From assembly GCF_003018235.1 (NCBI RefSeq), contig NZ_CP027439.1: a stretch of DNA of 64,000 nucleotides. One strand, given 5' to 3'. The translations under genes were made by a program, and so were the position numbers. This DNA is from Escherichia coli (lineage in GTDB: Bacteria; Pseudomonadota; Gammaproteobacteria; Enterobacterales; Enterobacteriaceae). The notes under the pieces are model-generated. The model made no database searches, was not told where the DNA came from, and saw nothing but the letters and a program-made list of their open reading frames with translations. Below are positions 6,786 through 48,656 of the stretch, piece by piece (the first letter of the stretch is position 1; each line of letters opens with the position of its first letter).

Positions 6786-6929
6786 TGCGGCAACAATCAC
6801 ACAGATTACCCGTAAACAGCCTGAATGAGCGGGTTATTTTCAGGAAAAGTGAGTGTGGTCAGCGTGCAGGGATATGGGCTATGATGTGCCCGGCGCTTGA
6901 GGCTTTCTGCCTCATGACGTGAAGGTGGT

Positions 6930-7010
6930 TTGTTGCCGTGTTGTGTGGCAGAAAGAAGATAGCCCCGTAGTAAGTTAATTTTCATTAACCACCACGAGGC
7001 ATCCCTATGT
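6930..7010 (-). ncRNA. sok: Sok/FlmB-like antisense RNA of the hok-type killer locus (approximate position)
   Basis: Placed from the hok/sok paradigm: antisense to the leader and mok start upstream of hok. No promoter or ends were mapped. Confidence 0.3.
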
Positions 7011-7219
7011 CTAGTCCACATCAGGATAGCCTCTTACCGCGCTTTGCGCAAGGAGAAGAAGGCCATGAAACTACCACGAAGTTCCCTTGTCTGGTGTGTG
7101 TTGATCGTGTGTCTCACACTGTTGATATTCACTTATCTGACACGAAAATCGCTGTGCGAGATTCGTTACAGAGACGGACACAGGGAGGTGGCGGCTTTCA
7201 TGGCTTACGAATCCGGTAA
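7007..7219 (+). CDS. mok: Mok/FlmC-like overlapping reading frame (modulation of killing)
   Basis: 70-aa ORF overlapping hok in a different frame, as in hok/sok and flm loci. Confidence 0.6.
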
Positions 7220-10923: not shown

Positions 10924-11039
10924 AAGAAATTTGACTTCGTTCAAATATCAGAGTTTTTATGATTTAAAAGGGTGACAGTACGAAAGATAATTAGTATATT
11001 AATTACGTGGTTAATGCCACGTTAAAATTTGAATTTGAA

Positions 11040-11115
11040 AATCGCCGATGCAGGGAGTTCACGTCTCCCTGCATCGACTGTCCATAGAATCCTTTGTGAG
11101 GAGGTTCCTATGTAT
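11040..11115 (-). ncRNA. finP: FinP-like antisense RNA opposite the traJ leader (approximate)
   Basis: Stem-loop GATGCAGGGAG...CTCCCTGCATC (11047..11075) plus a second stem spanning the traJ RBS and start; position follows the FinOP paradigm. Ends not mapped. Confidence 0.4.
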
Positions 11116-11799
11116 CCGATGGATCGTATTCAACAAAAACATGCTCGTCAAATAGATCTGCTGGAAAATCTGACGGCAGTTATTCAGGATTATCCAAATC
11201 CAGCCTGTATCAGGGACGAAACTGGAAAATTTATTTTTTGCAATACGCTGTTTCATGAGTCATTTCTTACACAAGATCAAAGTGCTGAAAAATGGCTTCT
11301 GTCGCAGAGAGATTTTTGTGAATTGATCTCTGTCACAGAGATGGAAGCATACAGGAATGAGCATACGCATCTTAATCTTGTAGAGGATGTTTTTATTCAG
11401 AACAGATTCTGGACAATATCTATTCAGTCATTTCTTAATGGACACAGAAATATCATTCTGTGGCAATTTTATGATGCTGCTCATGTTCGTCATAAAGACA
11501 GTTATAATCAAAAAACGATTGTCAGTGATGATATCAGAAATATAATCAGAAGAATGAGTGATGATTCTTCTGTATCATCATATGTAAATGATGTCTTTTA
11601 CTTATATAGCACCGGAATCAGTCATAATGCTATAGCAAGAATATTAAACATATCCATCTCCACATCAAAGAAACACGCGTCTCTGATATGCGACTACTTC
11701 TCTGTTTCTAATAAAGATGAGTTAATCATCTTACTCTACAATAAAAAGTTTATTCATTATTTGTACGAGAAGGCTATGTGTATCATAAATACGCGTTAA
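11110..11799 (+). CDS. traJ: Transfer operon activator TraJ
   Basis: 229 aa from ATG at 11110 with RBS GAGGAGG; lies between traM and traY. Confidence 0.8.
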   Translation: MYPMDRIQQKHARQIDLLENLTAVIQDYPNPACIRDETGKFIFCNTLFHESFLTQDQSAEKWLLSQRDFCELISVTEMEAYRNEHTHLNLVEDVFIQNRFWTISIQSFLNGHRNIILWQFYDAAHVRHKDSYNQKTIVSDDIRNIIRRMSDDSSVSSYVNDVFYLYSTGISHNAIARILNISISTSKKHASLICDYFSVSNKDELIILLYNKKFIHYLYEKAMCIINTR

Positions 11800-30082: not shown

Positions 30083-32904
30083 ATGAAGTTTATGTGATTG
30101 CCGGTGGTGAGTGGTTGCGGAATAACCTGAACGCCATTGCCGCTTTTATGGGAACCAGGACGTGGGATTCCATTGAAAAAATTGCGCTCACATTGTCTGT
30201 TCTCGCGGTGGCCGTGATGTGGGTACAGCGGCACAACGTGATGGATTTGCTGGGCTGGGTGGCCGTGTTTGTGCTTATCAGCCTGCTGGTTAATGTCCGC
30301 ACATCGGTGCAGATTATTGATAACAGTGACCTGGTCAAAGTTCACCGGGTGGATAATGTGCCGGTCGGACTGGCGATGCCACTTTCACTGACGACCCGTA
30401 TCGGGCATGCAATGGTGGCCAGTTACGAGATGATCTTCACGCAACCGGACAGTGTCACCTACAGCAAAACGGGGATGCTGTTTGGCGCAGAACTGGTATC
30501 AAAAAGCACCGACTTTTTGTCCCGGAATCCGGAAATCGCCAATCTTTTCCAGGATTATGTGCAGAACTGCGTGATGGGGGATATTTACCTGAACCACAAA
30601 TATACGCTGGAGGAGCTGATGGCCTCCGCTGATCCCTACACGCTGATTTTTTCCCGCCCCAGCCCGCTGCGGGGCGTTTATGACAGCAATAATAATTTCG
30701 TAACCTGTAAGGACGCTTCGGTTTCGCTGAAAGACAAGCTGAATCTGGACACACAGAGTGGCGGAAAAACCTGGCATTATTATGCCCAGCAGCTATTTGG
30801 CGGACGCCCTGATCCTAACCTGCTGTTCAGTACGCTGATTGGCGACAGTTACAGTTACTTCTATGGCTCAAGTAAATCAGCCAGCCAGATCATCCGCCAG
30901 AATGTCACCATCAATGCGCTGAAGGAGGGGATCACCAGTTATGCCGCACGTAATGGTGATTCGGCCAGCCTGGTGAATCTGGCCACCACATCATCGATGG
31001 AGAAGCAACGTCTGGCACATGTCTCCATCGGTCATGTGGCGATGCGGACACTGCCCATGACGCAGACCATCCTGACGGGGATCGCCATCGGTATTTTCCC
31101 GCTCCTGGTACTGGCGGCTGTCTTCAACAAACTGACGCTGTCCGTCCTGAAAGGCTATGTGTTTGCCCTGATGTGGTTGCAGTCATGGCCAATGTTGTAC
31201 GCCATTCTGAACAGCGCCATGACATTTTATGCAAAGCAGAATGGTGCACCGGTGGTGCTCTCGGAAATTTCACAGATACAGCTGAAATACTCCGATCTGG
31301 CTTCCACTGCCGGGTATCTTTCCATGATGATCCCGCCATTATCCTGGATGATGGTCAGGGGGCTCGGGGCAGGATTTTCCAGTGTGTACAGCCATTTCGC
31401 TTCCTCTGCTATCAGCCCGACCGCCAGTGCAGCAGGCAGTGTGGTTGACGGTAATTACTCCTACGGCAACATGCAGACGGAGAACGTTAACGGCTTCAGC
31501 TGGAGCACCAACAGCACCACGTCGTTTGGTCAGATGATGTACCAGACCGGCAGTGGCGCAACCGCCACACAGACCCGTGACGGTAATATGGTGATGGATG
31601 CAAGCGGAGCGATGTCCCGGTTACCGGTCGGCATCAATGCAACGCGTCAGATTGCGGCGGCACAACAGGAAATGGCCCGGGAAGCATCGAACAGAGCAGA
31701 AAGTGCCCTGCATGGGTTCAGCAGCAGTATTGCCAGTGCCTGGAACACGCTCAGTCAGTTTGGTTCTAACCGGGGGAGCAGTGATTCTGTCACCGGTGGT
31801 GCTGACAGCACGATGAGTGCTCAGGACTCCATGATGGCCAGCCGTATGCGCAGTGCAGTGGAAAGCTATGCGAAGGCGCATAATATCAGTAATGAGCAGG
31901 CGACTCAGGAACTGGCATCAACAAGTACCAGGCTATCTGGTGGAATGTATGCTGATGCTCATGCTGAATGGGGGGTTAAACCTAAAATTCTTGGTGTTGG
32001 TGGTGGGGTAGGCATCAGAGGTGGATTTAAGGGGAGCCTGGATGCAACGGATGATGACTCACATTCAGCAAGTAGTGGCAGCAGGGCTACCCATGATGCT
32101 CGCCATGATATCGATGCTAAAGCCAGTAAGGACTTTAAAGAGGCCAGCGATTACTTTACCAGTCGCAAGGTCAGTGAATCCGGCAGCCATACGGACAATA
32201 ATGCCGATTCCCGTGTGGACCAGCTGTCTGCAGCCCTGAACTCAGCAAAACAGAGTTACGACCAGTACACGACGAATATGACCCGCAGCCATGAATATGC
32301 TGAAATGGCATCCCGTACTGAAAGCATGAGTGGGCAGATGAGTGAAGACCTGTCGCAACAGTTTGCACAGTATGTGATGAAACACGCGCCGCAGGATGCC
32401 GAAGCTATTCTGACAAACACCAGTTCACCGGAGATTGCAGAACGCCGTCGGGCGATGGCATGGTCTTTTGTTCAGGAACAGGTGCAGCCTGGTGTTGATA
32501 ATGCCTGGCGTGAATCCCGTGGGGATATTGGTAAAGGAATGGAGAGCGTACCTTCGGGTGGTGGCAGCCAGGATATTATTGCTGACCATCAGGGGCATCA
32601 GGCCATTATTGATCAAAGAACGCAGGACAGTAATATCCGTAATGATGTAAAACATCAGGTTGATAATATGGTCACAGAATATAAAGGGAATATCGGAGAT
32701 ACTCAGAATAGTATTCATGGCGAAGAAAATATTGTAGACAGACAATATTCAGAGTTAAAAAATAATCACAAACAGGAAGAAATTCAACAAAACAACAGAT
32801 ATAATGAAGAAAATAAACGACAGAAATTAATGCCAACACCGTCTGAAGATGCGTTAAAACAGATGGTGGATGATAAGAAAGAACGATTGAAGGGGCCATT
32901 ATGA
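30079..32904 (+). CDS. traG: TraG (mating-pair stabilisation / entry exclusion)
   Basis: 941 aa, polytopic N-terminal domain. Confidence 0.92.
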   Translation: MNEVYVIAGGEWLRNNLNAIAAFMGTRTWDSIEKIALTLSVLAVAVMWVQRHNVMDLLGWVAVFVLISLLVNVRTSVQIIDNSDLVKVHRVDNVPVGLAMPLSLTTRIGHAMVASYEMIFTQPDSVTYSKTGMLFGAELVSKSTDFLSRNPEIANLFQDYVQNCVMGDIYLNHKYTLEELMASADPYTLIFSRPSPLRGVYDSNNNFVTCKDASVSLKDKLNLDTQSGGKTWHYYAQQLFGGRPDPNLLFSTLIGDSYSYFYGSSKSASQIIRQNVTINALKEGITSYAARNGDSASLVNLATTSSMEKQRLAHVSIGHVAMRTLPMTQTILTGIAIGIFPLLVLAAVFNKLTLSVLKGYVFALMWLQSWPMLYAILNSAMTFYAKQNGAPVVLSEISQIQLKYSDLASTAGYLSMMIPPLSWMMVRGLGAGFSSVYSHFASSAISPTASAAGSVVDGNYSYGNMQTENVNGFSWSTNSTTSFGQMMYQTGSGATATQTRDGNMVMDASGAMSRLPVGINATRQIAAAQQEMAREASNRAESALHGFSSSIASAWNTLSQFGSNRGSSDSVTGGADSTMSAQDSMMASRMRSAVESYAKAHNISNEQATQELASTSTRLSGGMYADAHAEWGVKPKILGVGGGVGIRGGFKGSLDATDDDSHSASSGSRATHDARHDIDAKASKDFKEASDYFTSRKVSESGSHTDNNADSRVDQLSAALNSAKQSYDQYTTNMTRSHEYAEMASRTESMSGQMSEDLSQQFAQYVMKHAPQDAEAILTNTSSPEIAERRRAMAWSFVQEQVQPGVDNAWRESRGDIGKGMESVPSGGGSQDIIADHQGHQAIIDQRTQDSNIRNDVKHQVDNMVTEYKGNIGDTQNSIHGEENIVDRQYSELKNNHKQEEIQQNNRYNEENKRQKLMPTPSEDALKQMVDDKKERLKGPL

Positions 32905-36570: not shown

Positions 36571-39500
36571 TGATGAGTATCGCGCAGGTCAGATCGGCCG
36601 GAAGTGCCGGTAACTATTATACCGACAAGGATAATTACTATGTGCTGGGCAGCATGGGAGAACGCTGGGCCGGCAGGGGGGCTGAACAGCTGGGACTGCA
36701 GGGCAGTGTCGATAAGGATGTTTTTACCCGTCTTCTGGAGGGAAGGCTGCCGGACGGAGCGGATCTAAGCCGCATGCAGGATGGCAGTAACAGGCATCGT
36801 CCCGGCTACGACCTGACCTTCTCCGCCCCCAAAAGTGTCTCCATGATGGCCATGTTAGGTGGCGATAAGCGCCTGATTGATGCACATAACCAGGCCGTGG
36901 ACTTTGCTGTTCGTCAGGTGGAGGCGCTGGCCTCCACACGGGTGATGACGGACGGACAGTCAGAAACGGTGCTGACCGGTAATCTGGTGATGGCACTGTT
37001 TAACCACGACACCAGTCGCGATCAGGAACCACAGTTACACACGCATGCGGTGGTGGCTAATGTCACGCAGCATAACGGCGAATGGAAGACACTGAGCAGT
37101 GACAAAGTGGGGAAAACGGGGTTCATTGAGAATGTGTACGCTAATCAGATTGCCTTTGGCAGGCTCTACCGGGAAAAACTGAAAGAGCAGGTTGAGGCGC
37201 TGGGCTATGAAACCGAAGTGGTGGGTAAGCACGGTATGTGGGAGATGCCGGGCGTACCGGTGGAGGCCTTTTCCGGACGCTCACAGGCAATCCGGGAGGC
37301 CGTCGGGGAAGATGCCTCGCTGAAATCCCGGGATGTGGCGGCACTGGATACGCGAAAATCCAAACAGCACGTCGATCCTGAAGTCAGAATGGCTGAATGG
37401 ATGCAGACGCTGAAGGAAACCGGGTTCGACATCCGGGCATATCGTGACGCGGCGGATCAGCGTGCGGAGACCCGCACGCAGGCGCCCGGGCCAGCTTCAC
37501 AGGACGGGCCGGATGTGCAGCAGGCGGTGACACAGGCGATTGCCGGATTAAGTGAACGAAAAGTGCAGTTCACGTATACGGATGTGCTGGCCAGGACAGT
37601 CGGCATACTGCCGCCGGAAAATGGTGTGATTGAACGGGCACGCGCCGGTATCGATGAGGCCATCAGCCGTGAGCAGCTTATCCCCCTCGATCGTGAGAAG
37701 GGGCTGTTCACGTCCGGGATTCATGTGCTCGATGAGCTGTCAGTCCGGGCGCTCAGTCGTGACATCATGAAACAGAACCGGGTGACCGTACATCCGGAGA
37801 AAAGTGTCCCCCGGACGGCCGGTTACAGCGATGCCGTCAGTGTTCTGGCACAGGATCGCCCGTCGCTGGCCATTGTGTCCGGGCAGGGCGGTGCTGCCGG
37901 GCAGCGTGAGCGGGTGGCTGAACTGGTCATGATGGCCCGGGAGCAGGGGCGGGAGGTGCAGATTATCGCTGCTGACCGTCGTTCGCAGATGAACCTGAAG
38001 CAGGATGAACGGCTGTCCGGTGAGCTGATAACCGGACGTCGTCAGCTGCAGGAGGGCATGACCTTCACACCGGGCAGTACCGTTATCGTTGACCAGGGCG
38101 AAAAACTCTCCCTGAAAGAGACGTTAACCCTGCTGGACGGTGCCGCACGTCATAACGTACAGGTCCTGATAACCGACAGCGGGCAGCGAACCGGTACAGG
38201 CAGTGCGCTGATGGCCATGAAGGATGCCGGGGTGAACACATATCGCTGGCAGGGGGGAGAACAGCGACCGGCCACCATCATCAGTGAACCGGACCGTAAT
38301 GTCCGCTATGCCCGGCTGGCAGGAGATTTTGCGGCCAGCGTGAAAGCCGGAGAAGAGAGCGTGGCACAGGTCAGCGGGGTACGGGAACAGGCCATACTGA
38401 CACAGGCCATTCGCAGTGAGCTGAAAACACAGGGCGTGCTCGGACACCCGGAGGTAACCATGACCGCCCTCTCACCGGTCTGGCTGGACAGCCGGAGCCG
38501 TTATCTGCGGGATATGTACCGTCCGGGGATGGTGATGGATCAGTGGAACCCGGAGACACGCAGTCATGACCGCTATGTTATCGACCGGGTGACGGCGCAG
38601 AGTCACAGCCTGACCCTGCGGGATGCGCAGGGTGAAACGCAGGTGGTGCGTATTTCCTCCCTGGACAGCAGCTGGTCGCTGTTCCGGCCGGAAAAAATGC
38701 CGGTGGCAGACGGCGAGCGTCTGAGGGTGACAGGGAAAATTCCCGGACTCCGCGTCTCCGGCGGTGACCGCCTGCAGGTGGCATCCGTCAGTGAAGATGC
38801 GATGACGGTTGTTGTGCCGGGGCGGGCTGAACCGGCCACCCTGCCTGTGGCTGATTCACCGTTCACGGCACTGAAGCTGGAGAATGGCTGGGTGGAAACG
38901 CCCGGGTATTCCGTCAGCGACAGTGCGACGGTTTTTGCCTCCGTCACACAGATGGCAATGGACAACGCCACCCTGAACGGTCTGGCCCGCAGCGGTCGTG
39001 ATGTCCGGCTGTATTCCTCTCTGGATGAAACCCGTACTGCGGAAAAACTTGCCCGCCATCCCTCCTTTACGGTGGTTTCTGAGCAGATAAAGACGCGGGC
39101 CGGTGAGACACCGCTGGAAACTGCTATCAGTCTGCAGAAAGCCGGGCTTCACACGCCGGCACAGCAGGCCATTCATCTGGCCCTTCCTGTGCTGGAAAGT
39201 AAAAACCTGGCCTTCAGCATGGTGGACCTGCTGACAGAGGCGAAGTCGTTTGCTGCAGAAGGAACCAGTTTTATCGACCTGGGAGGGGAAATCAATGCGC
39301 AGATAAAACGCGGTGATTTACTGTATGTGGATGTGGCAAAAGGCTATGGCACAGGCCTGCTGGTTTCCCGTGCGTCGTATGAGGCAGAAAAGAGCATTCT
39401 TCGCCATATTCTCGAAGGTAAGGAGGCGGTCACGCCGCTGATGGAGAGAGTACCTGGCGAACTCATGGAGAAACTGACATCAGGACAGCGCGCCGCCACC

Positions 39501-43356: not shown

Positions 43357-43569
43357 ATGAATGGATTCAGAAACAGTTCACGGAACGGTCAGGTCTGGCG
43401 TTACCAGCGTGCCGGCGGGCGGGCCGTTATTCTGGAGGTCAGTGGACGCTGGATGGAAGCGGCAGAAGCATGGCGACGGGCTGCCTGCATAGCTCCCCGG
43501 ACAGACTGGCAACAGTTTGCCCGGAAAAGGGCTGAACACTGCCACCGGCGCTGCCGGGGAAGGGTGTAA
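43357..43569 (+). CDS. Hypothetical small protein
   Basis: 70-aa ORF preceded by GGGAGGAG RBS; no recognisable motifs. Confidence 0.35.
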   Translation: MNGFRNSSRNGQVWRYQRAGGRAVILEVSGRWMEAAEAWRRAACIAPRTDWQQFARKRAEHCHRRCRGRV

Positions 43570-43814
43570 CGAAAAAAGCAGCCTTCATTACACCAGAAGT
43601 CAGAAGGCTGAAAGGAGTTTATGAGATTTGCTTTTTTTAATATCCGGTCGGGCAGTATGACCGGACAGTTCTGAGTAGCACAGAGTTTTTTCCGTATTAA
43701 GTCGTGATTTTATATTTTGTGATTTATTTCACAAAATAAGGTGTTATTCATTGTGTGCTGCAATATTCAGGATGCCTGAAATACAGGTGCCATTTATCTG
43801 ATATGGAGAATAAC

Positions 43815-44276
43815 ATGATGAAATATATTCCACTGGTATTATTTATCTTTTCATGGCCGGTATTGTCTGCAGATATTCATGGACGGGTTGTTCGTGTACT
43901 GGACGGTGATACCATCGAGGTCATGGACTCACGGAAGGCGGTGCGGATCAGGCTGGTAAATATTGATGCACCGGAAAAGAAACAGGATTATGGCCGGTGG
44001 TCAACAGACATGATGAAATCACTGGTCGCAGGAAAAACGGTTACCGTCACATATTTTCAGCGAGATCGTTATGGTCGTATTCTCGGGCAGGTTTATGCGC
44101 CAGACGGAATGAATATTAATCAGTTTATGGTCCGGGCCGGGGCTGCCTGGGTATATGAGCAGTACAACACAGATCCCGTGCTGCCTGTCCTTCAGAACGA
44201 AGCCAGACAACAAAAACGTGGGCTCTGGTCAGATGCTGATCCGGTTCCCCCCTGGATATTGAGGCACCGTAAATAA
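43815..44276 (+). CDS. Secreted thermonuclease (SNase-like)
   Basis: Signal peptide MMKYIPLVLFIFSWPVLSA followed by SNase-type motifs (VRVLDGDTIEV, RLVNIDAPE). Confidence 0.8.
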   Translation: MMKYIPLVLFIFSWPVLSADIHGRVVRVLDGDTIEVMDSRKAVRIRLVNIDAPEKKQDYGRWSTDMMKSLVAGKTVTVTYFQRDRYGRILGQVYAPDGMNINQFMVRAGAAWVYEQYNTDPVLPVLQNEARQQKRGLWSDADPVPPWILRHRK

Positions 44277-44321
44277 AGCGATGGCAATCCTATCATTCAT
44301 TTGTTCTTAGCGGGAATAAAA

Positions 44322-44531
44322 ATGGCAAAAACAAAACAGGAATGGCTGTATCAGTTACGGCGATGTTCATCAGTCAATACGCTGGAAAAAATTATTCATA
44401 AAAACAGAGACAGTTTATCGACCAGTGAACGTGAATCATTTAATTCAGCAGCAGACCACCGGTTAGCAGAATTAATCACCGGAAAGTTATATGACAGGAT
44501 ACCAAAAGAAATATGGAAATATGTAAGGTAA
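44322..44531 (+). CDS. Hypothetical protein
   Basis: ORF in the finO-repA intergenic backbone; start assumed at MAKTKQEW. Confidence 0.4.
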   Translation: MAKTKQEWLYQLRRCSSVNTLEKIIHKNRDSLSTSERESFNSAADHRLAELITGKLYDRIPKEIWKYVR

Positions 44532-44569
44532 TAATTCAGCAATAATTAATTACCAGGAGCAGATAAACA

Positions 44570-45160
44570 ATGAAGCTGATTATTTTTATTCTTATTGTTC
44601 TGATTATTGCAGCGTTACTTATCCGGATTATCCTCAGAAGTGTAAATCAGCATTCTCCTTTGCTGATGCAATTGCATGCGGCAGGTATACGGACCGGTGA
44701 TGCAGAGCGAATACTGTCCAGCGGTGAATACTGGCAACGTCAGAAGACGCTGCTGACAGAAAGGGAAGTCAGTTTTATGAAAGGACTGTTCAGAATTGTG
44801 GATATGAAGCGGTGGTATCTGTGTCCGCAGGTACGGGTCGCGGATATCGTCCAGCTGAACGGGAATATCCGGCCACGATCACGCCAGTGGTGGCAGTTAT
44901 TCAGGATGGTGTCTCAGTGGCATGTTGATGTGGTTATCGTTGAGCGGCGTTCGTTCAGTATTGTTGCAGCAGTAGAGCTGGATGATGCCAGCCATTTACG
45001 ACCGGAACGCAGACGCCGGGATATTCTTCTGGAAGAGGTTCTGAGGCAGGCTGGTATTCCGTTGCTCAGAAGCCACGATGCCAGAAAACTGCTGCAGATG
45101 ACCGGAGAATGGCTGAATACAACAGGGGCTGATCAGCAGTCACCGGAACATCGTAGCTGA
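44570..45160 (+). CDS. Hypothetical protein with N-terminal membrane anchor (possible nuclease-fold domain)
   Basis: 196 aa; MKLIIFILIVLIIAALLIRIIL anchor; no firm family assignment. Confidence 0.5.
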   Translation: MKLIIFILIVLIIAALLIRIILRSVNQHSPLLMQLHAAGIRTGDAERILSSGEYWQRQKTLLTEREVSFMKGLFRIVDMKRWYLCPQVRVADIVQLNGNIRPRSRQWWQLFRMVSQWHVDVVIVERRSFSIVAAVELDDASHLRPERRRRDILLEEVLRQAGIPLLRSHDARKLLQMTGEWLNTTGADQQSPEHRS

Positions 45161-45399
45161 CGCCTTCGCGTTGCTCAGTTGTCCAACCCCGGAAACGGGA
45201 AAAAGCAAGTTTTCCCCGCTCCCGGCGTTTCTATAACTGAAAACCATACTATTTCACAGTTTAAATCACATTAAACGACAGTAATCCCCGTTGATTTGTG
45301 CGCCAACACAGATCTTCGTCACAATTCTCAAGTCGCTGATTTCAAAAAACTGTAGTATCCTCTGCGAAACGATCCCTGTTTGAGTATTGAGGAGGCGAG

Positions 45400-45660
45400 A
45401 TGTCGCAGACAGAAAATGCAGTGACTTCCTCATTGAGTCAAAAGCGGTTTGTGCGCAGAGGTAAGCCTATGACTGACTCTGAGAAACAAATGGCCGCTGT
45501 TGCAAGAAAACGTCTTACACACAAAGAGATAAAAGTTTTTGTCAAAAATCCTCTGAAAGATCTCATGGTTGAGTACTGCGAGAGAGAGGGGATAACACAG
45601 GCTCAGTTCGTTGAGAAAATCATCAAAGATGAACTGCAGAGACTGGATATACTAAAGTAA
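45400..45660 (+). CDS. copB: Replication copy-number repressor CopB (RepA2)
   Basis: 86-aa protein [47 protein letters not shown], IncFII RepA2 family. Confidence 0.88.
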
Positions 45661-45764
45661 AGACTTTACTTTGTGGCGTAGCATGCTAGATTACTGATCG
45701 TTTAAGGAATTTTATGGCTGGCCACGCCATAAGGTGGCAGGGAACTGGTTCTGATGTGGATTTA

Positions 45765-45855
45765 CAGGAGCCAGAAAAGTGAAAACCCCGATAATCTTCT
45801 TTAACTTTGGCGAGTGAGAAAGATTATCGGGGCTAACAAGAAACTGCATAGAAGC
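45765..45855 (-). ncRNA. copA: CopA (inc) antisense RNA of the repA1 leader (approximate ends)
   Basis: Long imperfect hairpin 45786..45832 (ccccgataatctt...aagattatcgggg) with a loop containing GCGCCAAAG on the minus strand, matching the CopA/CopT stem-loop II arrangement between copB and tap. Confidence 0.5.
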
Positions 45856-45883
45856 TGTTGCTCTATGCGGGGAGTATAGTTAT

Positions 45884-45958
45884 ATGCCCGGAAAAGTTCA
45901 AGACTTCTTTCTGTGCTCACTCCTTCTGTGCAACATAAGTGCAGGATGGTGTGACTGA
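45884..45958 (+). CDS. tap: Leader peptide Tap (RepA6) translationally coupled to repA1
   Basis: 24-aa [27 protein letters not shown] ending at TGA 45956..45958, overlapping the repA1 GTG start at 45951. Confidence 0.7.
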
Positions 45959-46808
45959 TCTTCAACAAACGTATTACCGCCAGGTAAAGAACCCGAATCC
46001 GGTGTTCACTCCCCGTGAAGGTGCCGGAACGCTGAAGTTCTGCGAAAAACTGATGGAAAAGGCGGTGGGCTTCACCTCCCGTTTTGATTTCGCCATTCAT
46101 GTGGCGCATGCCCGTTCCCGTGGTCTGCGTCGGCGCATGCCACCGGTGCTGCGTCGACGGGCTATTGATGCGCTGCTGCAGGGGCTGTGTTTCCACTATG
46201 ACCCGCTGGCCAACCGCGTCCAGTGTTCCATCACCACACTGGCCATTGAGTGCGGACTGGCGACAGAGTCCGGTGCAGGAAAACTCTCCATCACCCGTGC
46301 CACCCGGGCCCTGACGTTCCTGTCAGAGCTGGGACTGATTACCTACCAGACGGAATATGACCCGCTTATCGGGTGCTACATTCCGACCGACATCACGTTC
46401 ACACCGGCTCTGTTTGCTGCCCTTGATGTGTCTGAGGATGCAGTGGCAGCTGCGCGCCGCAGTCGTGTTGAATGGGAAAACAAACAGCGCAAAAAGCAGG
46501 GGCTGGATACCCTGGGTATGGATGAGCTGATAGCGAAAGCCTGGCGTTTTGTGCGTGAGCGTTTCCGCAGTTACCAGACAGAGCTTAAGTCCCGTGGAAT
46601 AAAACGTGCCCGTGCGCGTCGTGATGCGAACAGGGAACGTCAGGATATCGTCACCCTGGTGAAACGGCAGCTGACGCGTGAAATCTCGGAAGGGCGCTTT
46701 ACTGCTAATGGTGAGACGGTAAAACGCGAAGTGGAGCGTCGTGTGAAGGAGCGCATGATTCTGTCACGTAACCGCAATTACAGCCGGCTGGCCACAGCTT
46801 CCCCCTGA
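45951..46808 (+). CDS. repA1: Replication initiator RepA1 (IncFII/RepFIIA)
   Basis: 285 aa from the GTG start: [89 protein letters not shown]. Confidence 0.93.
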
Positions 46809-46849
46809 ACCTGACCTCCTCTGAATAATCCGGCCTGCGCCGGAGGCTT

Positions 46850-47100
46850 CCGCACGTCTGAAGCCCGACAGCGCACAAAAAATCAGCACCACATACAAAA
46901 AACAACCTCATCATCCAGCTTCTGGTGCATCCGGCCCCCCCCCTGTTTTCGATACAAAACACGCCTCACAGACGGGGAATTTTGCTTATCCACATTAAAC
47001 TGCAAGGGACTTCCCCATAAGGTTACAACCGTTCATGTCATAAAGCGCCAGCCGCCAGTCTTACAGGGTGCAATGTATCTTTTAAACACCTGTTTATATC
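46850..47100. other. oriR region (vegetative origin) with DnaA box
   Basis: DnaA box TTATCCACA at 46986..46994 about 180 bp downstream of repA1; AT-rich stretch follows. Confidence 0.55.
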
Positions 47101-47216
47101 TCCTTTAAACTACTTAATTACATTCATTTAAAAAGAAAACCTGTTCACTGCCTGTCCTGTGGACAGACAGATATGCACCTCCCACCGCAAGCGGCGGGCC
47201 CCGACCGGAGCCATTT

Positions 47217-47235
47217 TAGTTACAACACTCAAATA
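47217..47235 (-). other. Ter (Tus-binding) site, minus orientation
   Basis: Reverse complement reads GAGTGTTGTAACTAAAATG, matching the Ter core GTTGTAACTA. Confidence 0.6.
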
Positions 47236-47346
47236 CAACCACCGGAAAAACCCCGGTCCCGCGCAGAACTGAAACCACAATGCCCCTCCTCATAACTGAA
47301 AAGCGCCGCCGCCCCCGCCCAAAGGGCGGGAACAACATCGCTTTTA

Positions 47347-47369
47347 ATTATGAATGTTGTAACTATACA
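47347..47369 (+). other. Ter (Tus-binding) site, plus orientation
   Basis: AATTATGAATGTTGTAACTATAC matches the Ter consensus; inverted relative to the site at 47217. Confidence 0.65.
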
Positions 47370-47407
47370 ACATCATTGCTGTCAGTATTCTGGCTGGAAG
47401 TCCTCAG

Positions 47408-47663
47408 TACACGCTCGTAAGCGGCCCTGACGGCCCGCTAACGCGGAGATACGCCCCAACTTCGGGTAAACCCTCGTCGGGACCACTCCGACAGCGCACA
47501 GAAGCTCTTTCATGGCTGAAAGCGGGTATAGTCTGGCAGGGCTGGGGATGGGTAAGGTGAAATCTATCAATCAGTACCGGCTTACGCCGGGCTTCGGCGG
47601 TTTTACTCCGGTATCACATGTAACCACAGCGTGCCGCCTTCCATGCCGCTGGCGCGGCATATC
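47408..47663 (+). repeat. Paralogous structured non-coding element, copy A (candidate sRNA or cis-regulatory RNA)
   Basis: About 80% identical to 48657..48907 (my estimate); conserved hairpins (gcggccctgacggcccgc; ccggc-ttac-gccgg; ggcttcggcgg followed by TTTT); no conserved reading frame. Confidence 0.6.
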
Positions 47664-47724
47664 CTGGTGACGATATCTGAATCGTTATATACTGCGTATA
47701 TATGTGGTAATGACGGGGTGATAA

Positions 47725-47994
47725 ATGGCACAGGTTAATATGAGTTTAAGAATTGACGCTGAACTGAAGGATGCTTTTATGGCCGCTGCAAAAAGCATGG
47801 ACCGTAATGGCTCTCAGTTAATCCGGGATTTTATGCGCCAGACCGTGGAACGGCAGCATAATACCTGGTTCCGTGACCAGGTTGCGGAAGGACGTCAGCA
47901 ACTCGAGCGCGGCGATGTGCTTCCCCATGACATGGTCGAATCTTCTGCTGCTGCATGGCGGGATGAAATGAGCAGGAAGGTTGCCGGTAAATGA
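47725..47994 (+). CDS. Ribbon-helix-helix antitoxin-like protein (RelB/DinJ/ParD-type)
   Basis: MAQVNMSLRIDAELKDAFMAAAKSMDRNGSQLIRDFMRQ matches the RHH pattern; putative -35/-10 and RBS at the 3' end of element A; stop overlaps the next ATG (ATGA). Confidence 0.7.
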   Translation: MAQVNMSLRIDAELKDAFMAAAKSMDRNGSQLIRDFMRQTVERQHNTWFRDQVAEGRQQLERGDVLPHDMVESSAAAWRDEMSRKVAGK

Positions 47995-48568
47995 TGGAGA
48001 TATTCTGGACCATGCTGGCCAGCCAGGCCGGACTGACTTGGGAAGGGCAGGCACACTCAGCGATCGCCGACGCACGGATGACGGCAGGTGTGGTAAACGC
48101 TATTGCTGCATATCATCTGGAACTACTGCAGGAACAGGCTCGGCTGAAAAACTTGAAAAGGATTATCTGGCTGAAGTGGCTAATTACAGTAACGACCGCT
48201 GGGAAGCACCGCAACGTGCCTCACGCCTGGCTGCCAGCGTAAAGCGTTACAAGACATCAGAAATGCTGCGCTTTATTCTTGCTACCATTGCCTACGATCC
48301 CGATCCAGATTTAACCCCGCTGACTGTGAGACGTTTGTGCAAGGCATTGTTCGGCAGAACCGGAAGCCAGTGGCTGGTTGTTGAAGTTTTTGGGGAGAAG
48401 GGGCGTCAGCACAGCAGCGCGGACAGTAATCCGGAGATGGTGGAAAAAATGGCTGCCAGATATCGTCACGCCGCCGAACTACACTGGTCCGCAACGCTGG
48501 CAGAAATTGAACGGGTAAAGCGGCTTTATCAGACGAAAATTAAGAAATCCAAAAAAGAAGTGGGTTGA
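47991..48568 (+). pseudogene. Decayed ORF coupled to the RHH gene; possible remnant of a DEDDh-type exonuclease or toxin
   Basis: ATG 47991 overlaps the RHH stop. Frame 0 (47991..48242) contains an Exo III-like motif HSAIADARMTAGVVNAIA; the coding-like signal continues in another frame (47981..48568), implying a frameshift near 48130. Confidence 0.3.
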
Positions 48569-48656
48569 CTGCCATTGTTATTCTTTTCCTTCATCATTAA
48601 TGCTAATGTATGGTGCGTTAAGCGTACAATAATTTCGAATATCCAAACTGATCTCA

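Follow-up and report, generated by a model that had tools for sequence, protein, structure and literature searches.

Copy-number control module of a complete and probably active RepFIIA-family replicon with a pHN7A8-like copA/tap cassette in a 64-kb plasmid segment

The stretch of DNA analysed here (64 kb, hereafter the window) carries a gene for a transcriptional repressor (copB), a repA leader overlapped by an antisense RNA gene on the opposite strand (copA), a short leader ORF (tap) and the gene of a replication initiator (repA), with an origin-type DnaA box further downstream. The exact coordinates are supplied in Table 1 for use in annotation. The RepA protein scored 582.9 bits against TIGR03474 in comparison to a cut-off of 446.9, and 619.4 bits against PRK13750 in comparison to a cut-off of 478, the latter match covering residues 1-285. 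The primer used for cloning the repA gene of R1 starts with GTGACTGATCTTCAACAAAC, which is the sequence of positions 45951..45970 of the window, and the DnaA box together with its flanks is the same as DnaA-box1 of oriR1 (PMC5883639). Between copB and the leader, candidate hexamers for the repA promoter were found at 45666..45671 (-35, TTTACT) and 45688..45693 (-10, TAGATT), within a segment that is 100% identical to R1 and that varies among replicons with different CopB types. In the promoter scan of 45150..47200 the repA and copB promoters both stayed below the threshold, and since this applies to the hexamers just named, the repA promoter is treated here as putative.

Table 1. Features of the replicon control region, with positions in the window
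Feature	Position	Strand	Description and support
copB (repA2)	45400..45660	+	86-aa repressor of transcription from the repA promoter; NF010256, 138.8 bits (cut-off 87)
Putative repA promoter (PrepA) and CopB operator region	45661..45713	+	Position by homology
FII replicon-sequence-typing amplicon (in silico)	45694..45953	+	260 bp; both FII primers match exactly, once
Recombinant cassette (repA leader, copA/copT, PcopA, tap)	45714..45950		pHN7A8/F33-like; between R1-type copB and repA
CopA antisense RNA	45777..45868	-	About 90 nt; CopT, the target in the leader of the repA mRNA, is its + strand complement
Stem-loop II of CopA and CopT	45786..45832		Lower stem reaches 45784..45834
Recognition loop	45807..45812		UUGGCG in CopT, CGCCAA in CopA
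Stem-loop I of CopA	45846..45868	-	Folds; one CG/AU compensatory pair within the helix
copA promoter (predicted)	45873..45901	-	-35 TTGAAC (45901..45896), 17-nt spacer, -10 TATACT (45878..45873)
tap (repA6) leader ORF	45884..45958	+	24 codons; TIGR03475, 64.9 bits (cut-off 35.05)
Hairpin sequestering the repA Shine-Dalgarno (AGGA, 45943..45946) and GUG start	45917..45954	+	Local fold, -15.8 kcal/mol
repA (repA1)	45951..46808	+	285-aa initiator; TIGR03474, PRK13750
DnaA box of oriR	46986..46994	+	TTATCCACA; read from the sequence, marks the origin downstream of repA

An earlier note on this DNA had claimed a stem-loop at 45786..45832, a tap ORF of 24 aa and a repA1 gene starting at GTG 45951 inside tap, and all of these were confirmed. 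The stem-loop, in which CCCCGATAATCTT pairs with AAGATTATCGGGG around the loop TTGGCG of the + strand, is stem-loop II of a full-length Rfam match to CopA (RF00042) at 45777..45866 on the minus strand, which covers model positions 1-92 of 92 with 89.9 bits (E=1.3e-16) in comparison to a gathering score of 60, and which is the single CopA match in the whole 64-kb window. The tap ORF runs from ATG 45884 to TGA 45956..45958, follows a Shine-Dalgarno sequence GGAG read at 45871..45874, and belongs to its profile family; PGAP gives the same product, under the name "RepA leader peptide Tap" (WP_001375168.1), for plasmids whose control region is identical. The repA start, from which a 285-aa ORF extends to 46808, agrees with the profile matches and with PGAP, which gives the same tap and repA coordinates in the plasmids carrying the identical control region.

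To look for conserved structure we compared the RNA elements across 15 alleles of the FII and FIC type, R1, R100 and the RepFIC of F included. A 111-nt RNA of the minus strand was predicted to fold into two stem-loops at -37.4 kcal/mol in comparison to -19.0 +/- 3.0 kcal/mol for shuffled sequences (n=200, z=-6.25), none of the 200 shuffles being as good, and the two-stem-loop fold is common to all 15 alleles. In the CopA helices 89.8% of the cells were paired across these alleles in comparison to about 45% (41-48%) when the partners were slid, and compensatory exchanges of CG with AU and of GC with CG were observed. The hexaloop CGCCAA, with its target UUGGCG, is kept in 14 of the 15 alleles, and the alleles are distinguished by the bulged upper stem that flanks it, together with stem-loop I and the linker. 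Stem-loop I of the window is of a sequence type that is common to pCT-KPC, pE17EC0383-3, the O104:H4 plasmid and Escherichia sp. MOD1, but not to R1 or R100. A terminator is predicted at consensus level, consisting of stem-loop II followed by UUUUCACUUUUC. The promoter of copA, likewise a consensus-level prediction, was the only sigma-70-like site in the scan of 45150..47200, has the strand and position expected of it, is unchanged in the 15 alleles, and shares bases with the ribosome-binding site and start codon of tap. More diverse CopA loci were sought by scanning genome contigs with the 17-mer TACAGGAGCCAGAAAAG; nearly all of the 52 loci obtained were chance matches in unrelated phyla, and the usable ones were L045 from Escherichia sp. 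and L056 from K. pneumoniae ATCC 13883.

At the junction of the two ORFs, GTG 45951 sits 5 nt ahead of the tap stop codon, the overlap sequence being GTGACTGA; the junction GGATGGTGTG is invariant and the GTG is present in 15/15 alleles. An in-frame GTG further upstream at 45939, with which the ORF would be 289 aa long, was not accepted as the start of repA, being without a Shine-Dalgarno sequence and replaced by GCG in two of the 15 alleles; it is also disfavoured by PGAP and the profile alignments, which fit 45951. The hairpin over the repA start was paired in all of 182 cells in 13 distinct alleles in comparison to 29-57% when slid. Five of its pairs are variable, each changed on one side only with the pairing kept, and double compensatory pairs were not seen in it. 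The fold of the whole tap-repA leader was not better than that of shuffled sequences (z=-0.64), and support from folding is thus confined to the local hairpin.

Overall, all elements of the control circuit are present, intact and correctly arranged, each falls within its own family, and the RNA structures are conserved. Because CopA, tap, repA, copB, the copA promoter, the hairpin, the oriR box and the typing amplicon occur together, we assign the region to the RepFIIA family, and the comparison suggests that it is almost certainly the control module of a complete, probably active replicon on an F-type conjugative plasmid. The same assignment, made in the earlier note, is borne out by the RNA, leader-peptide, RepA and CopB families and by the gene order, and is further backed by the start/stop overlap, the copA promoter and the exact typing amplicon. 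Replicon typing had been named there as the check, with a non-FII outcome as the refutation; the FII primers (PMC11312129) yield in silico a product of 260 bp, for which 258-262 bp is expected. The replicon of the 64-kb segment is in this way fixed as F-type and FII family, and it is the sole replicon seen in the window. Allele-level typing (the FAB formula) is what carries epidemiological information, and no FAB formula was found for the closest plasmids in the papers searched by accession.

By analogy with the relatives studied, the replicon very probably works through the known CopA/CopT–tap–repA mechanism, a well-understood copy-number switch (PMC12361487, PMC12779154, PMC4398462, PMC5883639). 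For the transcripts, the kinetics, the translational coupling of tap and repA, the expression of CopA and the repression by CopB, the following account draws on work on R1 and NR1 and on the homology of the window to them. The repA mRNA would run rightward across copB, the leader, tap and repA; CopA, of about 90 nt, would arise from a constitutive promoter of its own, on the other strand, and end at the U-run past stem-loop II, near 45777. The CopA loop CGCCAA would then kiss the CopT loop UUGGCG, and pairing would spread via the upper stems and the linker into a stable complex, whose 3' edge would adjoin the tap ribosome-binding site, so that tap would go untranslated. With the repA ribosome-binding site and GUG locked in the hairpin, and with the start overlapping the tap stop (GUGACUGA), RepA synthesis should require that a ribosome translate tap, unfold the hairpin and initiate again. 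As the concentration of CopA would follow the plasmid copy number, RepA synthesis and the firing of the downstream oriR would be expected to fall as the copy number rises. CopB would repress a second promoter of repA and serve as a back-up when the copy number drops.

The earlier note had also proposed alignment with R1 and R100, for which NZ_KY749247 and NC_002134 (R100/NR1) were used here, together with KT185451 for pCT-KPC, and the results of this comparison were divided: copB with its operator and repA are essentially those of R1, but copA is the copA of neither R1 nor R100. Judged by the sequence comparison, the replicon is a mosaic, with copB and repA of the R1 type and a copA/tap cassette of the pHN7A8 (F33) type. 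Counted segment by segment, the cassette of about 240 bp has 36 differences to R1 and R100 in comparison to 5 to pCT-KPC, and its flanks differ from R1 at 1 position in 492 nt and 7 positions in 858 nt. The window shares with R1 the gene order (copB-copA/copT-tap-repA-oriR1) and the overlaps, 86/86 residues of CopB and 282/285 residues (99%) of RepA, as well as the copA promoter, the Shine-Dalgarno and start of tap, the Shine-Dalgarno and GUG of repA, and the hexaloop. It differs from R1 in stem-loop I and the linker, which are of another sequence type, in 5 changes of the upper stem of stem-loop II, in three residues of Tap (CNI instead of RIV) and, downstream of repA, in 95 of 892 columns, an end gap making up part of these. 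In addition, T45827 closes the A.C mismatch of the R1 CopT lower stem; it gives an A-U pair where the other alleles (14/14) give G.U in CopA and A.C in CopT.

R100/NR1, whose RepFIIA replicon (repA2-incRNA-repA6-repA1) has the same architecture, is 93.8% identical to the window over 45684..47714, the origin region included, and shares 276/285 residues of RepA, whereas its CopB/RepA2 is only 48% identical and its operator region is unrelated; R100 and R1 do not differ in copA, and the window departs from both at the same places. For the FII allele of the pHN7A8 type (F33:A-:B- plasmids), represented by pCT-KPC, whose repA1 is stated to derive from pHN7A8 (PMC6188201), the picture is the reverse. 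The cassette is 98.1% identical over 261 bp, only 3/95 columns of CopA differ, and Tap is identical, in comparison to a copB that is mostly unrelated (106/261 columns differ) and a repA that differs at 62/858 nt. Within stem-loop II the two are distinguished by the upper-stem base 45816 (C against G in CopA) and by the change at 45827.

The statement in the earlier note that the copA loop sets the incompatibility group was found to be only loosely right, the hexaloop being nearly uniform among the alleles and the differences lying beside it. This bears on whether the replicon is IncFII in the strict sense, i.e., has the CopA specificity of R1 and R100 and is thus incompatible with both. In the loop and three flanking pairs per side (ACUCGCCAAAGUU) the window does not differ from R1 and R100, and the first kissing contact should therefore still form; CopB and RepA are moreover the R1 proteins, and the FII primers amplify. 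In comparison to R1/R100, however, CopA differs at 24/95 columns, comprising 5/27 in the upper stem plus loop and 15/35 in stem-loop I plus linker, and the near-identity of upper stem and loop implied by strict membership was not found. The predicted stem-loop II duplex is -38.1 kcal/mol for the heterologous pair in comparison to -54.7 kcal/mol for the cognate one. Different FII alleles co-occur in one cell or plasmid (F31/F36, F1/F2 and F2/F29; PMC12090814), and in the I-complex the top loop and the upper-stem interior loop determine specificity, a single change in either being enough to switch compatibility (PMC10724649). Taken together, we regard strict IncFII specificity as possible, yet with the odds somewhat against it.

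Our own suggestion, which is equally tentative, is that the swapped copA/tap cassette may end effective cross-reaction with the CopT of R1 and R100 and make the replicon compatible with classical IncFII plasmids while it still types as FII; a further effect, on binding kinetics or copy number, could come from the additional A-U pair at 45827. If true, modular exchange of stem-loop I and of the stem-loop II upper stem between alleles would offer FII replicons a way out of incompatibility. Since its copA differs from that of R1/R100, "FII" is for this replicon a family and typing assignment and no proof of R1/R100 incompatibility; the type denotes an R1-like backbone with a pHN7A8-like copA and should for that reason be read with caution.

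The mosaic RepFIIA module could in principle be an inactive relic, comparable to the transposon-truncated RepFIC of F, with replication driven from an origin outside the window. Many IncF plasmids have several replicons, the nearest relatives bear additional replicon labels, and the window is 64 kb of a possibly larger plasmid, the rest of which could hold the driving replicon. Such a relic appears very unlikely, given that repA is full length (285 aa) and nearly identical to the functional R1 protein, that tap, CopA, the copA promoter, the ribosome-binding-site hairpin, copB and the oriR DnaA box are all intact, and that tblastn found no homologue of FIA RepE or FIB RepB in the 64-kb window.

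An assignment to RepFIC of the F/P307 type in place of RepFIIA was considered in view of the PLSDB/MOB-suite label IncFIC for NZ_CP025329, which has a 261-bp region 100% identical to the window, and of the low identity of the window CopB to that of R100. RepFIC is a member of the FII family with a distinct incompatibility group, and it shares with the window the circuit, the hexaloop and the design of the tap/repA junction; in F its repA is truncated. NZ_CP025329, however, holds two FII-family matches, so the IncFIC label may belong to the other one, and pE148-1, with a single match, is labelled IncFII. The labels for the identical region disagree, one record having IncFII and another no more than IncFIA/FIB/FIC, and the same scheme names R1 and R100 "IncFIA"; these labels therefore carry little weight, and we dropped them as typing evidence. 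In comparison to F RepFIC, CopA differs at 11/27 columns for the upper stem with its loop and at 32/95 for the whole RNA, and the CopB of the window is 49% identical in comparison to 100% for R1 CopB; a RepFIC-type CopA upper stem and loop together with a RepFIC-type CopB was not found, which makes this assignment extremely unlikely.

The I-complex (IncI1/B/K/Z) resembles the window in that the Inc RNA, an antisense hairpin, acts against a UUGGCG loop in the leader of rep (repY-repZ) and in that translation of rep is coupled to that of a leader peptide; the title of reference 19 in PMC10724649 likewise names the loop hexanucleotide as a motif of I-complex Inc RNA targets. Control of that type depends on a pseudoknot, formed by the target loop with a sequence further downstream, which switches on translation of rep and whose formation the antisense RNA prevents. 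For the window it is nonetheless the least credible reading of all. The Rfam models PK-repZ and PK-repBA, of families that have the UUGGCG loop motif in common with the CopT hairpin, did match this hairpin weakly on the + strand (30.0 and 29.6 bits), but these matches lie well under the gathering scores (44 and 45) and span the hairpin only (positions 4-60 of 150 and 5-51 of 124) without the pseudoknot partner that the I-complex needs. CopA scores far higher on the minus strand, Tap is the leader peptide encoded, and the initiator is IncFII RepA and not the different Rep family of the I-complex. The relic, RepFIC and I-complex readings were all rejected on this evidence.

The RepFIIA control region is not a chance pattern, as more than 5000 plasmid records match it, and identical control regions are already in public plasmids such as NZ_CP025329 and pE148-1. 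Mosaic IncFII replicons and multiple FII alleles have been documented before, and the region thus represents known biology to which nothing new is added. A minus-strand ORF of 45 aa at 45712..45849, carried as a "hypothetical protein" in relatives, is most simply explained as a spurious ORF call across copA.

The earlier note had claimed, from the sequence alone, a CopA/CopT hairpin, the tap reading frame and a GTG-initiated repA, and when all ORFs were listed and the sequence was inspected over 45000..47400, each was found exactly where it had been placed. The plus-strand loop of the hairpin, TTGGCG, sits on a bulged upper stem, and GTGACTGA contains the tap stop as well as the repA start. 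Rfam scanning of 44000..48500 returned a full-length CopA match (RF00042; 89.9 bits, E=1.3e-16, gathering score 60), and no second CopA was found by Rfam in the whole 64-kb window. The curated NCBIfam cut-offs were exceeded by RepA (TIGR03474, 582.9 bits against 446.9; PRK13750, 619.4 against 478), by Tap (TIGR03475, 64.9 against 35.05) and by CopB/RepA2 (NF010256, 138.8 against 87) alike. The PGAP coordinates of tap and repA, GTG start included, are the same in NZ_CP025329 and pE148-1, whose control regions are identical. A 45-aa ORF lies antisense to copA; it is a "hypothetical protein" (WP_001385661.1) in related plasmids, is named "copy control protein CopA" in one record, and is probably an ORF-calling artefact over the RNA gene.

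Features of the replicon and its surroundings, in window positions
Feature	Position	Strand	Remark
sok, traJ 5' UTR with FinP, AS-traG, AS-traI and AS-pc02 (Rfam)	6891..7067, 11005..11116, 30798..30883, 39419..39495, 43466..43651		AS-pc02, 178 bits
Leading region and full tra operon	2.1-43 kb
196-aa ORF	44570..45160	+	directly upstream of replicon
copB/repA2	45400..45660
45-aa ORF	45712..45849	-	antisense to copA
CopA (RF00042)	45777..45866	-
CopA/CopT hairpin	45786..45832		CCCCGATAATCTT paired with AAGATTATCGGGG
Hairpin loop	45807..45812	+	TTGGCG
Predicted copA promoter	45901..45873	-	TTGAAC-17-TATACT; sigma-70-like, at the expected place
tap	ATG 45884 to TGA 45956..45958	+	24 codons
Predicted repA ribosome-binding-site hairpin	45917..45954	+	local RNA fold around tap end
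repA	GTG 45951 to 46808	+	285 aa
DnaA box	46986..46994		consensus TTATCCACA; downstream of repA
yacA	47725..47994		antitoxin gene, intact
yacB/exonuclease fusion	47991..48242		junction 48004..48027
Cargo block	48004..55840
IS3-like element	~55.7-56.95 kb
IS3-like element, OmpA-family, YadA-like adhesin and S6-family (SPATE) autotransporter genes	55699..64000		SPATE gene continues beyond window end

The 111-nt RNA of the minus strand folded into the two-stem-loop shape of CopA at -37.4 kcal/mol, compared with -19.0 +/- 3.0 kcal/mol for its shuffles (z=-6.25; none of 200 as good). We then built an alignment of the 261-bp region with 15 FII-family replicons, namely the window, R100, F RepFIC, pCT-KPC (a carrier of the pHN7A8-type allele), two genome contigs and nine plasmids picked at even steps along the BLAST ranking; folded separately, each sequence gave the same two hairpins. 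Standard pairs occupied 89.8% of the cells on the window's CopA structure and 41-48% when partners were slid by 1 to 3 columns, with compensatory changes of CG to AU or the reverse in stem-loop I and of GC to CG or the reverse beside the loop. Among these 15 alleles, T45827 (plus strand; A in CopA) is unique to the window, being C in the 14 others; it gives an A-U pair in the lower stem, where the others pair G.U in CopA and are mismatched (A.C) in CopT.

The promoter scan of 45150..47200 gave one sigma-70-like site only, the predicted copA promoter, which overlaps the ribosome-binding site and start codon of tap. The hexamers TTTACT-16-TAGATT, which we infer to be the repA promoter PrepA, scored under the threshold of that scan. 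The hairpin predicted at the end of tap would bury the GUG start and the repA Shine-Dalgarno sequence (AGGA, 45943..45946); it is paired in 182 of 182 cells, compared with 29-57% for slid partners, and its five variable pairs show one-sided changes between A-U or C-G and G.U. The GGATGGTGTG motif is invariant across the aligned FII-family alleles. An in-frame GTG at 45939 was considered as the repA start and rejected; it is GCG in two alleles, so that conservation favours 45951. A cloning primer for R1 repA starts with GTGACTGATCTTCAACAAAC, corresponding to window 45951..45970 (PMC5883639). Downstream, the flanks of the DnaA box match those of oriR1 DnaA-box1 of R1, and R100 is 93.8% identical over 45684..47714.

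Replicon typing, which the earlier note had proposed as a check, bore out the FII assignment, since published FII replicon-sequence-typing primers (PMC11312129; expected product 258-262 bp) match exactly and once each, giving an in-silico product of 260 bp (45694..45953). No FIA RepE or FIB RepB homologue was found in the 64-kb window, and the FII-family replicon is the only one seen within it. The PLSDB/MOB-suite labels were rejected as typing evidence: R1 (NZ_KY749247) and R100 (NC_002134) are both called "IncFIA", and of the records with identical FII control regions one is labelled IncFII and another IncFIC (pCT-KPC, NZ_KT185451, is among the records bearing on this), so they cannot be relied on to tell FII, FIA and FIC apart.

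The alignment with R1 and R100, also proposed earlier, revealed a mosaic by per-segment difference counts. The upstream part with copB and the operator/PrepA (45222..45713) differs from R1 at 1 of 492 positions and from pCT-KPC, whose locus starts at window 45292, in 132 of ~420 columns. In the cassette of leader, copA/copT, copA promoter and tap (45714..45950) the counts are reversed, with 36 differences from R1 and 5 from pCT-KPC, the allele that it resembles, and in repA (45951..46808) they are 7 and 62 of 858, respectively. CopB is the same as that of R1 in 86 of 86 amino acids and RepA in 282 of 285. The IncFII repA1 of pCT-KPC has been reported as derived from the F33:A-:B- plasmid pHN7A8 (PMC6188201). 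Judged by these sequence comparisons, the replicon 45222..46808 is a recombinant in which R1-type copB/operator and R1-type repA surround a pHN7A8 (F33)-like copA/tap cassette. Within CopA, where R1 and R100 do not differ, the upper stem and loop differ in 5 of 27 columns from R1/R100, 11 from F RepFIC and 1 from the pHN7A8 type, and stem-loop I with the linker in 15, 15 and 0 of 35, respectively. The hexaloop CGCCAA is common to 14 of the 15 alleles, the differences from the window lying elsewhere in CopA. Across the 15 alleles (45777..45868), the two types of stem-loop I/linker and the several types of stem-loop II upper stem occur in varying combinations, so that the alleles are themselves mosaics, which indicates recombination within the 90-nt copA gene itself.

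All parts of the circuit are present, intact, correctly ordered, in-family and structurally conserved, and the established control scheme of R1 and NR1 (PMC12361487, PMC12779154, PMC4398462) is the best explanation of the region. By analogy with those plasmids, from which we infer transcription, inhibition, coupling and repression here, CopA would be synthesized constitutively and be unstable, so that its level would report copy number. A loop-loop kiss between CopA and CopT would extend to a stable complex blocking ribosome entry at tap, whose translation would be required for repA by opening the ribosome-binding-site hairpin and allowing re-initiation at the overlapping GUG, and RepA would thus drop with rising copy number. 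CopB would repress the inner repA promoter, the repression being lifted when copy number falls.

Every sequence-testable defining feature of the RepFIIA family was found, and by sequence the replicon falls outside the strict R1/R100 CopA specificity class. Strict incompatibility with R1/R100 is a tentative prospect which we consider somewhat improbable: the loop and three flanking pairs per side are identical and argue for some cross-reaction, but the five upper-stem differences argue for weakened inhibition. In the related I-complex plasmids, a single change in either the top loop or the upper-stem interior loop switches compatibility, which stem changes do not (PMC10724649), and different FII alleles are found sharing a cell or a plasmid (PMC12090814). 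The 261-bp region occurs at 99% identity or above in 44 public plasmid records, NZ_CP025329 being at 100%. Since mosaic IncFII replicons have long been on record (Osborn et al. 2000, as cited in PMC3325265) and the exact allele is in databases, the copy-control finding, though correct, is ordinary and not new.

As a whole, the window represents an F-type conjugative plasmid, in which tra is followed by finO, hha, a DUF2726 gene, the FII replicon, yacA, a UbiD/UbiX/tannase cargo, an IS3-like element and an OmpA/YadA-like/serine-protease autotransporter block. The 196-aa ORF, annotated DUF2726 in relatives and conserved in position in R100 and related plasmids, had no NCBIfam match at E<=0.01. 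Of the yacB toxin gene, which is deleted, the first 11 codons remain, joined in frame to the final ~71 codons of the adjacent 3'-5' exonuclease gene, and ~990 bp are absent relative to E. coli pSCU-111-1. The cargo block, 99.7% identical to that plasmid, carries genes for a UbiD-family decarboxylase, UbiX prenyltransferase, idi, DUF554, tannase/feruloyl esterase, a LysR regulator and YhbP, and looks like an aromatic-acid decarboxylation module, unusual beside an FII replicon. The IS3-like element is only 68% identical to IS3 of F, and the canine E. coli plasmid p100 has the same OmpA/YadA-like/SPATE arrangement. The Rfam matches above gathering thresholds outside the replicon, including the sok antitoxin RNA, form the usual F-plasmid antisense RNA set.
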